From a bacterium (GTDB lineage: Bacteria; Patescibacteriota; Minisyncoccia; Phycocordibacterales; Phycocordibacteraceae): a stretch of 64,000 nucleotides of DNA. This document shows, one piece after another, positions 54,001-57,000 of this stretch; position 1 is the first letter of the stretch, and the number at the start of each line of letters is the position of its first letter. The stretch covers positions 96,001-160,000 of the forward strand of contig JBBCGK010000001.1 of NCBI GenBank assembly GCA_037200965.1. Direction: 5' to 3'. A program made the position numbers.

Positions 54001-57000
54001 GAGCTTCTCGTTCGCGCGGATAGGCGGCGGATCACTGGTTGGATTGGAAGGCGCCGACGAGCCGAACAATCCGCCTGGCGGCGAATTCGCCAGAAGACGT
54101 CAGGGTGAGGATCGAGAACTTGGGACTGGCGGGGTCTTTCTTCGCCGTCAGCAATTTCTGGCCACGCCCGCCGAGTTCACGCACCATGGTATTCAAGGTC
54201 GAATCGTCGGTTCCCGTGAGCTTCGCCAGACGGGCCTGGGAAATACCGGGGTGCGCCAGCAGGCACGTAAGCACGACACACTGTCGCGCTGGCGTTCCCT
54301 GCATACCTATGCGGTCCGCAATAGCTTTCTTTGCCTCCCTGAATTTGTGCGTTGCTCGAACGAATTCCATCAAGAGCGACTCTTCTGCGGTTTCCGACGC
54401 GGTCCGCGCAAGATGAATCACTATCATTCTCTTGGCCATGGCATCCTCTTCGCTACATGTTGCACCAACTAGACTGCTCGGATTCTAGGCCGAACCCTGC
54501 TTGCCGTCAAGCAGCAGCCCGAACCGTGTTATTGCCGAATCTTCCTTTTCCGCTAGAATGCAGAAGTCCCGCATGCGGGGCACAAACATTCCGCGGTAGC
54601 TCAATGGTAGAGCAGCTCCCTGTGGCAAACGCAGCTTCCAAAGGAAACTTTGGTCGAAGAACGAGGTGAATTCGGGGAACCCCGAGCGAGAAATCGCGGG
54701 CAATCCCGAGCCAAGTCCCGAATGTCGGGAAAGGTGTAGAGACTATCTCGCAAGAGAGTACTTGGAAAGACGGATTAATCTTTGTCTTTCCCGGGAAGCG
54801 CCTCGCACCCTTCGGGGTGATGATATAGTCCATCCCTGCCAGTAATGGAAGGAGCGATGTAAGGAGTTGGTTCCAGGTTCGAGTCCTGGCCGCGGAGCCA
54901 GATAGGATTAACATCAGCGAAAGCTGGTGTTTTTCCTTTATTGACGGGCTTTTTTGGCGGTTCGAAAGTTCTTTTTTCGTCTGTTTTTTCTCCCATCATC
55001 TGCATGACACGGTCGGAGATGATTTTGAAGGCTTTATGGTATGAAATCTCCACTTTCTTGCCGTTTATCGTCGAGTTCGAAAATAACAGCGACATCAAAA
55101 GCTTCTTGTCGTCGACCATCTCGAGCGTGCTCCGGTTTACGTAAATCTTCCGCGCCTCCTTGGCCATCTGCAAGAAAGTCGATCCCATGTCGAAGTACTT
55201 GAGATTAGCGTTCTTGTGCTTATTGAGGCTATCCATCACTTCTTCCTGCTCGAGCTTGTACTGCGCGTACTTTTTCTGATAGAAGTCCTCGCTTATTTTG
55301 CCGTCGATCTTATCGTCATATATTTTGTCGAGCCGTTGCGTCGCCGTCTGATATCGTCGCTCCAGCTCGCCGGTTGCCTTTTCCCTGAATTCTATTTCCT
55401 CGCTATGGCTTTCCTTGAGTGCTTCCTGAACCCAGGTGAGCATATGCTCGATGGCCTCGTCATGCTTCGAGCTTAACTGCTCGATATTTTCCATCACTTG
55501 CTCGTCGACCTGCTCCTGCCGGACATATTCTTTCTGCGTGCAGTTTTTATAGTGATTGCAGTGGCCATACCAATGGCCTTTCTGTATCTCCCACGTTACG
55601 CGGCCCTTGCACTCCTCGCACCGAAACACGTTTTTGAAAAGCGAGTTGTGCTTGTTGTATCTCGGCGTGCCGTTGCTGTGCATGATGTCTTGGCACCGCA
55701 TGAATAATTCTTTGGTGATAAGCGGCTCATGTCCGCCCTGGGCGACTTTGCCGTTCCAGCGGTTCATGCCGTAGTAGAACGGATCGCCAAGAAGCTGATG
55801 CACGCGCGAGTGACTTACCTTGTTGCCTCCGCGCGAGCGCATGCCGAGCTTGTACATCTCATCGGCCAGTTTCTTGGTCGAGTGTATATTCGTGGCATAG
55901 AGTTCGAACATTCTTTTGACGATCGGTGCCTTATCCGGATCGAGCACGTGGATTTTGTGTCCCTTCTCGCCGACGGTTTTGTAGCCGAGCGGCGGCTTGC
56001 TCGGCAGCCAGCCTTGCGCGAGCTTTTCTTTCTGGCCTTTCTTCACGTTCTCGGAAAGGAGTCGGATGTAGTACTCGGCCGTGGCTACTTTGACGCGCCA
56101 CATAAACCACTCGTGCGACTTGGAGTCCTTGTGGAGCGTACAGCTCTCTTTGACGAGGTGGATGGTGTGCTTTTCATCGGCCAGTATCCACTCGTCGATG
56201 ACCGGCACGTCGGCAAAGTTGCGCGTGAGGCGGTCGGTCGTCTCGACGAAGATCGTGTTGATCTTCGTCTTGGTCACGTATTCGAGCATCTCGTGGAATA
56301 TCTTGCGCTGGATTTTGCCAGCCGCCGATTCCTGGATGGCGAATACCTTGACCATCTCGTAGCCGTTGCGATCGGCATAGTCGTGCAAGAGCTTTTCCTG
56401 CGCCGGAAGCGAGTAACCGGTATCCTCCTGATCCTTGGATGACACGCGGGCGTACCCCACGGCTCGCAATGGTTGATTTTCTTGATTCATTGTCATGGTC
56501 ATAATTGCTAATAATTTGTTGGTTCGAATTCGACGTTCGGTACCAGACACACCATATGCCTATTCGTTTGCGCTGCTAAGCCCGAGTTACCCACATTCCA
56601 CCAGTCTTTTGCTCGAAACGTTGGGTTTTGTTGGCTTTTGTTGGGTATTTGCAGCATTTTCCGGTGGCTACTGGTGGGTTCCGGTGACTCAAAAACGGTT
56701 AAATAAGGTCAGTTGCGGTTAAATGACGACCGGCCTTTCATCGTCATTTTTGCTACCAGCTTGGCTTTCATGTCGTTGATCTTCTTGAGGTTCGCGCCGT
56801 TAACTTCTTTATAATTTTCTTTAATTTCTTTTGAACCCTTAGCTTCTCTATCTTCTCCGTGCGATGCGGTATGCGCCGCGTGCCGGCCGGCATTTCGTGC
56901 AGATCGGCCGCCATCCTGCGCCAGATGTAGGACGGAAAGCAAGGTGATGCTTCGTGGCTTGAACTTGGCATCCGCGCCACGCACTTTCGTGGTCACGATA

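Follow-up and report, generated by a model that had tools for sequence, protein, structure and literature searches.

What kind of gene lies at positions 54590-54900 of a 64,000-nt stretch of bacterial DNA (assembly GCA_037200965.1, contig JBBCGK010000001.1, positions 96,001 to 160,000; hereafter the window, which means this whole stretch)? The locus reads as a tRNA-Asn(GUU) gene whose anticodon loop is interrupted by a group I intron, which raises the questions of where exactly the intron begins and ends, whether the gene is functional and whether such an intron is new to tRNA-Asn. The favoured answer, to which a probability of about 0.88 is assigned, is a functional tRNA-Asn(GUU) gene of a member of the Patescibacteria (Paceibacteria, UBA9983_A), split between nucleotides 35 and 36 by a 236-nt IA-type group I intron without an open reading frame (ORF). 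The window stems from bin 5_UBA9983_A (JBBCGK000000000) of a PacBio HiFi co-assembly (JBBCBH) of a deadwood metagenome; a protein of the window is encoded on contig JBBCBH010010897.1 (960,259 bp) of this co-assembly (GCA_037975565.1). The bin comprises 967,758 bp in two contigs, has a GC content of 57.3% and a completeness of 99.27%, and was classified as p__Patescibacteria; c__Paceibacteria; o__UBA9983_A; f__UBA2103 (PMC11613949). The window therefore comes from the phylum in which this type of intron was described.

The split gene and its exact boundaries

A sequence-only reading had proposed two exons of 34 and 41 nt around an insert of ~236 nt, a reconstituted tRNA with a U1-A72 pair, G73, an encoded CCA and the loop CUGUUAA, three core words of a group I intron, a P1 helix whose U.G pair marks the 5' splice site, and a G as the last intron base. 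Reading of 54400-55100 found every one of these elements in its place. The exon sizes and the insert are exactly as described; the R-like and S-like words lie at the positions given in Table 1 and the third word, GAGCCAAGTCC, at 54709-54719; the U.G pair is formed by U54623 and G54631, and the terminal G is G54859. Exon 1 has the sequence TCCGCGGTAGCTCAATGGTAGAGCAGCTCCCTGT (54590-54623) and exon 2 the sequence TAAGGAGTTGGTTCCAGGTTCGAGTCCTGGCCGCGGAGCCA (54860-54900). For the joined exons, ARAGORN returned a 75-nt tRNA-Asn(gtt) with a perfect cloverleaf and seven acceptor pairs, and the U1-A72 pair, G73, the CCA and the loop CUGUUAA can be read directly from the spliced sequence.

The insertion lies between nucleotides 35 and 36 of tRNA-Asn(GUU), in the order CTGT, intron, TAA. 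With regard to the boundaries, the positions given earlier were right, but the margin of about 2 nt attached to them was too loose: CTGT/...G/TAA (slashes mark the splice sites) is the sole cut that gives U at position -1, G as the last intron base and a loop of 7 nt. Because only a single cut meets these three rules, the boundaries are exact, and the predicted spliced junction joins ...GCTCCCTGT to TAAGGAGT... (CUGU-UAAGGAG). A pattern consisting of a G followed by the tRNA-Asn 3' half matches once in the window, compared to 0.00 matches expected from shuffles. An exon 1 ending in CTGT is common to at least 104 other genomes, and the exons of the window gene are near-identical to the tRNA-Asn exons found there.

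An Rfam scan of the whole window at gathering thresholds yielded two matches, tRNA-Tyr at 13746 and the group I intron family RF00028 (Intron_gpI). The RF00028 match (54608-54852, forward strand) scores 64.1 bits, where the gathering score is 50, with E = 5.8e-14, and spans the entire model (positions 1-253 of 253). The match exceeds the gathering score and a P3-P9 core can be folded; together with the folding and covariation results described below, it bears out the earlier assignment to the group I introns. An ORF lying wholly within the 236-nt intron was not found, and the P1 loop measures 5 nt; the endonuclease ORF that would mark a mobile intron is thus absent. The promoter-like and terminator-like sites that bracket the gene (Table 1) suggest that tRNA-Asn may be transcribed as a single-gene unit.

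Fold, covariation and proposed splicing

All 13 helices of the intron form in the window sequence with standard pairs (Table 1). The unconstrained minimum free energy (MFE) fold has -88.5 kcal/mol (z = -3.1 versus shuffles) and independently recovers P1, P2, P3, P5a, P6/6a, P7.1, P7.2, P8 and P9. Homologous introns were obtained by the pattern search described in the last section; 81 short ones among the matches listed were aligned with MAFFT and their pairs counted explicitly. In this set, 86.7% of the cells are paired, compared to 67.6% in shuffled alignments and 35-45% when the pairing partners were slid, and the covariation score of 0.431, against 0.140 in shuffled data, was reached by 0 of 500 shuffles. 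The shuffle control ignores relatedness; the controls with slid partners agree with it in direction, as does the number of distinct pair types. Compensatory changes are plentiful in P2, P3, P4, P6a, P8 and P9. All homologs (81 of 81) have the same P1, formed by CUGU and GCAG with the U35.G wobble of the 5' splice site, and the words GCAGC, GAGACT and AGTCC are likewise invariant; the variation in P7 consists of one swap of AU to UA (73 versus 8 sequences). The 81-sequence alignment under-aligns the variable P5a, P7.1 and P7.2, of which P7.1 and P7.2 are resolved in a set of 14 closer relatives, where 91.1% of the cells are paired with both hairpins included. The fold is thus supported by covariation in homologous introns.

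In the Rfam alignment, P7.1 and P7.2 show up as 46 inserted nt between P7 and P3', and the two modelled hairpins point to a probable placement in subgroup IA. P7 and P7' lie 25-61 nt apart in about 35% of the introns measured among the matches listed (36 of 99), compared to 77 nt in the window; the family therefore includes forms with and without this IA hallmark. P7.1 and P7.2 are wholly absent in roughly 40% of the family (e.g., L002, L011, L030, L042, L044 and L121).

The following course of splicing is proposed. The tRNA-Asn gene would be transcribed alone, from the sigma-70-like promoter to the hairpin terminator. In the precursor, C32-U33-G34-U35 would pair with the guide GCAG, which would give P1 with the U35.G wobble, and the core, whose P3-P8 and P4-P6 domains would be joined by the P3/P7 pseudoknot, would bind a free guanosine in P7. 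The bound guanosine would attack the bond after U35; G54859 would then take the place of this guanosine in P7, and the bond before U36 would be attacked by U35 through its free 3'-OH. Ligation of the exons would restore the CUGUUAA loop in a tRNA of 75 nt whose CCA is encoded. A P10 pairing of the intron with the 3' exon is not evident, and the exons are therefore probably held together and aligned by the tRNA's own anticodon stem. The mature tRNA would probably be charged with aspartate by a non-discriminating aspartyl-tRNA synthetase and then amidated. An archaeal-type non-discriminating aspartate--tRNA(Asn) ligase is encoded at 15801-17153 on the forward strand (NF003483, 464 bits against a cut-off of 353), and its presence in the window implies tRNA-dependent formation of asparagine on tRNA-Asn. 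The U1-A72 pair fits the known recognition of tRNA by the amidotransferase.

Table 1. Coordinates of the split tRNA-Asn gene, of the elements of its intron and of the adjacent recombinase gene (positions are those of the window)
Feature	Position	Strand	Description
Sigma-70-like promoter	54532-54559	+	TTGCCG, 16 nt, TAGAAT; ~30 nt upstream of the tRNA 5' end; 9/12 hexamer matches
tRNA-Asn exon 1	54590-54623 (34 nt)	+	acceptor 5' strand, D arm, anticodon stem 5' strand, loop C32 U33 G34 U35
Group I intron	54624-54859 (236 nt)	+	3' end ...GCGATG; RF00028 match
P1	54620-24 / 54630-34	+	exon CUGU and intron G1 with CGCAG; guide GCAG 54631-54634; loop GCAAA
P2	54638-54653	+	6 bp, GAAA tetraloop; 98% of cells paired; compensatory changes in 6/6 pairs
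P3	54662-68 / 54799-805	+	7 bp; 90% paired; 4 pairs changed on both sides
P4	54672-77 / 54704-09	+	encloses P5 and P5a; 98-99% paired, compensatory changes
P5	54681-83 / 54698-700	+	3 bp, mostly paired across homologs
P5a	54686-89 / 54694-97	+	GAAA loop; recovered by MFE fold; variable across homologs
P6 and P6a	54710-54735	+	P6 2 bp, 100% paired; P6a 6 bp, triloop, 86% paired, 6/6 pairs covary; holds GAGCCAAG
R element (J6/7 and P7 5' strand)	54735-54748	+	core word GTGTAGAGACTATC
P7	GACUA 54741-45 / UAGUC 54826-30	+	P3/P7 pseudoknot; 100% paired in 81 sequences
P7.1	54746-54757	+	4 bp, GCAA tetraloop; MFE fold; 85% paired, 3 pairs changed on both sides (14 close relatives)
P7.2	54764-54791	+	8 bp, 12-nt loop; MFE fold; 89% paired, 6 pairs changed on both sides (14 close relatives)
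P8	54806-54819	+	5 bp, UUCG loop; 90% paired, 4 pairs covary
S element (J8/7 and P7 3' strand)	54819-54831	+	GATGATATAGTCC, GAUGAUAUAGUCC; AGTCC invariant in 81 sequences
P9	54835-54852	+	6 bp and one mismatch, GUAA tetraloop; 90% paired, 5 pairs covary; GNRA loop family-wide
Terminal guanosine (omega-G), 3' splice site	54859	+	sequence reading
tRNA-Asn exon 2	54860-54900 (41 nt incl. CCA)	+	U36 A37 A38, anticodon stem 3' strand, variable loop, T arm, acceptor 3' strand, G73
Intrinsic-terminator-like hairpin and T run	54910-54940 (hairpin 54910-54931)	+	10 nt past CCA; 9-bp stem, GAAA loop, TTTCCTTTAT tail
Large serine recombinase	54775-56550	-	Resolvase, Recombinase and zinc-ribbon domains; converges on tRNA-Asn

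Relation to known introns and competing explanations

The sequence-only reading had regarded a group I intron in tRNA-Asn as possibly new. This has been overtaken by the literature: group I introns at position 35/36 of tRNA-Asn(GUU) were described in Patescibacteria by Nakagawa, Amikura, Omae and Suzuki (mSystems 2026, PMC13011429; preprint July 2025), and self-splicing was demonstrated in the same work of 2025-2026. The setting was, according to these authors, reportedly first listed as 'Asn.4Ug' among 21 tRNA/intron settings by Williams in 2020 (bioRxiv 10.1101/2020.01.27.920355). In 95 complete Patescibacteria genomes, group I introns at 35/36 were found in 15 tRNA-Asn(GUU) genes and three tRNA-Asp(GUC) genes, and subgroup IA was assigned to 25 of the 28 introns at this site (PMC13011429). 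The tRNA-Asn precursor of GCA_016700035.1 showed precise GTP-dependent self-splicing in vitro, the ligated tRNA was sequenced, and mutation of the terminal G to C stopped the second splicing step (PMC13011429). Furthermore, it was reported that standard tools miss or misname genes with introns at 35/36, that copies with and without an intron for the same anticodon are rarely found together in one genome, and that four long tRNA-Asn introns harbour HNH endonuclease genes, the endonuclease-bearing copies being confined to Patescibacteria; in this survey of complete genomes, the 35/36 site was called rare outside the phylum (PMC13011429).

The window gene is colinear with four published tRNA-Asn 35/36 genes, with an intron identity of 57-64%: 57% to the validated intron of GCA_016700035.1 and 64% to one from Paceibacteria. 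It has in common with them the host tRNA, the insertion site, the CTGT/...TG/TAA junctions (CUGU/...G/UAA in the RNA), the GCAGC guide, the R and S elements and the phylum, as well as the IA-type architecture with P7.1 and P7.2 and the tendency to be missed or miscalled by annotation tools. It differs in its origin from a deadwood bin, which lies outside the 95 complete genomes. The closest relative among the matches listed is located in a Paceibacterota metagenome-assembled genome (L027) and shares ~70% intron identity. Judged by its sequence, the window gene is a new member of the published tRNA-Asn 35/36 intron family, from the expected phylum.

Two other groups of introns invite comparison. 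The Azoarcus pre-tRNA-Ile(CAU) intron and the classical IC3 tRNA introns (tRNA-Leu UAA, tRNA-fMet, tRNA-Arg CCU) are likewise small ribozymes without ORF in bacterial anticodon loops; bases of the anticodon loop form their very short P1, and L2 and L9 have GNRA tetraloops. The core words GAGCCAAG and GGUGUAGAGACUA are presumably common to the window intron and the Azoarcus intron. However, these introns are inserted at 33/34, 34/35 or 36/37 instead of 35/36 and lack the P7.1 and P7.2 hairpins between P7 and P3', and the window family was published as IA rather than IC (PMC13011429). The IA introns of the phage T4 td/nrdB type share the P7.1/P7.2 extension and a bacterial or phage setting with the window intron, and the long members of its family carry a homing endonuclease ORF as well; the T4 introns, however, reside in protein-coding genes and encode GIY-YIG or other endonucleases in different loops, whereas the window intron is located in a tRNA gene and has no ORF, and in its long relatives a small HNH ORF apparently occupies the P1 loop.

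What has been shown for the window intron is its fold, its splice-site signatures and its place in the family. A number of points nevertheless weigh against a functional, self-splicing tRNA-Asn gene. Catalysis by the window intron would follow by analogy with the self-splicing homolog, and identity to this sole validated homolog is modest (57% in the intron). The RF00028 score exceeds the gathering score by only 14 bits. P1 is made of four exon base pairs plus one only, and no P10 is visible. Since the search pattern demanded a terminal G, its presence in every homolog adds no independent evidence; the independent cases are the window copy and the published sequences only. The promoter and the terminator are consensus matches only, and their function is presumed. 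Finally, the search for an uninterrupted tRNA-Asn covered the 64 kb of the window, out of a contig of 960 kb.

The last point bears on the alternative that survives best, namely that the intron is a non-splicing member of the family or the gene a decaying duplicate, and that asparagine codons are decoded via an uninterrupted tRNA-Asn encoded outside the inspected part of the genome. The position of the gene would suit this explanation, as it lies on the margin of a mobile island, a setting rich in tRNA fragments and duplicates. However, the core helices are all intact, as are the two splice-site signatures, the cloverleaf is perfect, promoter-like and terminator-like sites are present, and a second tRNA-Asn 3' end was not found within the window. 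The only other tRNA there is tRNA-Tyr (13746-13829). In view of the rare coexistence of intron-bearing and intron-less copies of one anticodon (PMC13011429), this explanation is considered very unlikely.

Slightly less weight still is given to the possibility that a true group I intron is present whose splicing in the cell requires a protein cofactor, for which there is only a slim chance. Some group I introns in other systems are known to need protein helpers, and the short P1 and the lack of a visible P10 would be in line with such a need; yet a homolog of the same architecture splices in vitro with GTP alone (PMC13011429), GNRA tetraloops at L2, L5a, L7.1 and L9 could make the usual tertiary contacts that involve RNA only, the genomes of Patescibacteria are very small, and the neighbourhood of the gene shows no candidate cofactor.

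Annotation tools might suggest that the boundaries are shifted and that a different tRNA is encoded. By default, ARAGORN called no tRNA at the split gene; in intron mode (-i), it reported tRNA-His(gtg) with a 224-nt intron, and tRNA finders such as ARAGORN and tFind often shift tRNA-Asn introns at 35/36 by 2 nt, with tRNA-Thr(UGU) and an intron at 33/34 as a frequent output (Nakagawa et al., PMC13011429). Neither identity is credible, since the Thr reading would make A54857 the last intron base instead of a G, the His reading would place G instead of U at -1, destroy the U.G pair in P1 and require an 87-nt tRNA with a long variable arm, and the tRNA body has the Asn features U1-A72 and G73, lacks the His-specific G-1 and C73, and has near-identical tRNA-Asn exons as counterparts in at least 104 other genomes.

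Wider distribution, the recombinase island and consequences

Relatives of the self-splicing tRNA-Asn gene proposed here were sought with the pattern GTAAN{12,14}GGTTCGAGTCCN{7}GGAG, i.e., a G followed by the tRNA-Asn 3' half, which matched in at least 120 species-representative genomes. The pattern took in only the GAGTCC variant of the T-loop, and several published genes have GAATCC; the count of relatives is therefore a lower bound. In a looser screen, a tRNA-Asn 5' exon ending in CTGT was found upstream in 105 of 120 of the matches listed, and a stricter rule left at least 104 interrupted genes with inserts of 184-630 nt, most of the rest being cut by a contig end. RF00028 was matched at the gathering score in 32 of 38 sampled loci. 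Among the matches listed, 27 of 104 lie in bins labelled Patescibacteria and 77 in bins labelled as other phyla (Omnitrophota, Acidobacteriota, Nitrospirota, Elusimicrobiota, Planctomycetota, Bacillota, Methylomirabilota, Binatota, deltaproteobacteria and others), where the labels were given by the submitters and contamination of some bins is possible.

Long introns of 511-630 nt were found in 24 cases among the matches listed (e.g., L019, L021, L023, L034, L037, L095, L108 and L109). They correspond to the short ones with ~300 extra bases near the 5' end, apparently in the P1 loop, and most of them contain a conserved sense ORF of ~105-125 amino acids with CxxCGY...HH...CANCHRE motifs. When three of these ORFs were compared to Pfam, one passed the threshold of HNH PF01844 (28 bits), one remained below the cutoff (17.6 bits) and one had no match. 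Long introns occur in Nitrospirota, deltaproteobacterial, Omnitrophota, Planctomycetota, Elusimicrobiota, Acidobacteriota and gammaproteobacterial bins in addition to Patescibacteria. As a separate observation, a match to a group II intron domain (RF00029, 48.9 bits) lies on the reverse strand at 6742-6818 of L073, ~4 kb from the intron-containing tRNA-Asn gene of an Elusimicrobia bin.

Downstream of the window gene, the large serine recombinase overlaps the tRNA gene at 54775-54900: its open frame runs antisense through the terminator, the entire exon 2 (...WLRGQDSNLEPTPY...) and 85 nt of the intron to the first stop. A long antisense ORF across the tRNA-Asn T-loop was found in 16 of 121 sequences, namely the window and 15 loci from several phyla among the matches listed, and homologs of the recombinase adjoin the tRNA in at least 14 loci and on seven predicted viral contigs of IMG/VR. 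This suggests a family of integrative elements that uses the tRNA-Asn gene as attachment site. In IMG/VR (L122-L195), 62 of 74 pattern matches have no exon 1 upstream and may be pieces of attachment sites, derived from tRNA-Asn or other tRNAs; the full intron-containing gene is present in the remaining 12. To the right of the recombinase, at 56700-64000, the island carries genes for a DUF5659 protein, AbiEi/AbiEii, an EcoRI-like methylase, a GmrSD_N and HNH protein and a DUF2254 protein, a cargo that looks like a defence island. The right end of the island was not found, and no repeat of the tRNA 3' end marks it within the window. The island was also considered as the source of exon 2 or of part of the intron. 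This is unlikely, as the only exon 2 difference between L027 and the window is compensated in exon 1 (acceptor stem) and the 3' parts of the L027 and window introns are no more alike than their 5' parts.

Two further arrangements were observed among the neighbouring genes. A LexA/UmuD-like S24 peptidase gene followed by a gene for a Y-family (ImpB/MucB/SamB) polymerase, a pair of the SOS mutagenesis type, is located at 51112-53002 on the forward strand, ~1.6 kb upstream of the tRNA, and tyrS (12254-13717) lies directly upstream of the tRNA-Tyr gene.

The tRNA-Asn 35/36 intron family may reach far beyond its published range and be more mobile than described. The boldest form of this proposal, according to which serine-recombinase elements attach at intron-bearing tRNA-Asn genes and their spread is linked to that of the intron, is tentative, and the proposal is unlikely to be right. 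The results nonetheless suggest that the published picture, which is drawn from complete genomes only, understates how frequent this insertion is in uncultured phyla. The window gene adds a Paceibacteria copy from deadwood to a recently described family. As standard tRNA finders miss or misname the gene, a genome that is 99% complete can seem to be without tRNA-Asn, and a tRNA-Asn missed in this way distorts completeness scores as well as inference on codon usage and decoding in reduced genomes. If the gene is the sole tRNA-Asn gene, all decoding of asparagine in this organism would depend on the activity of a ribozyme.

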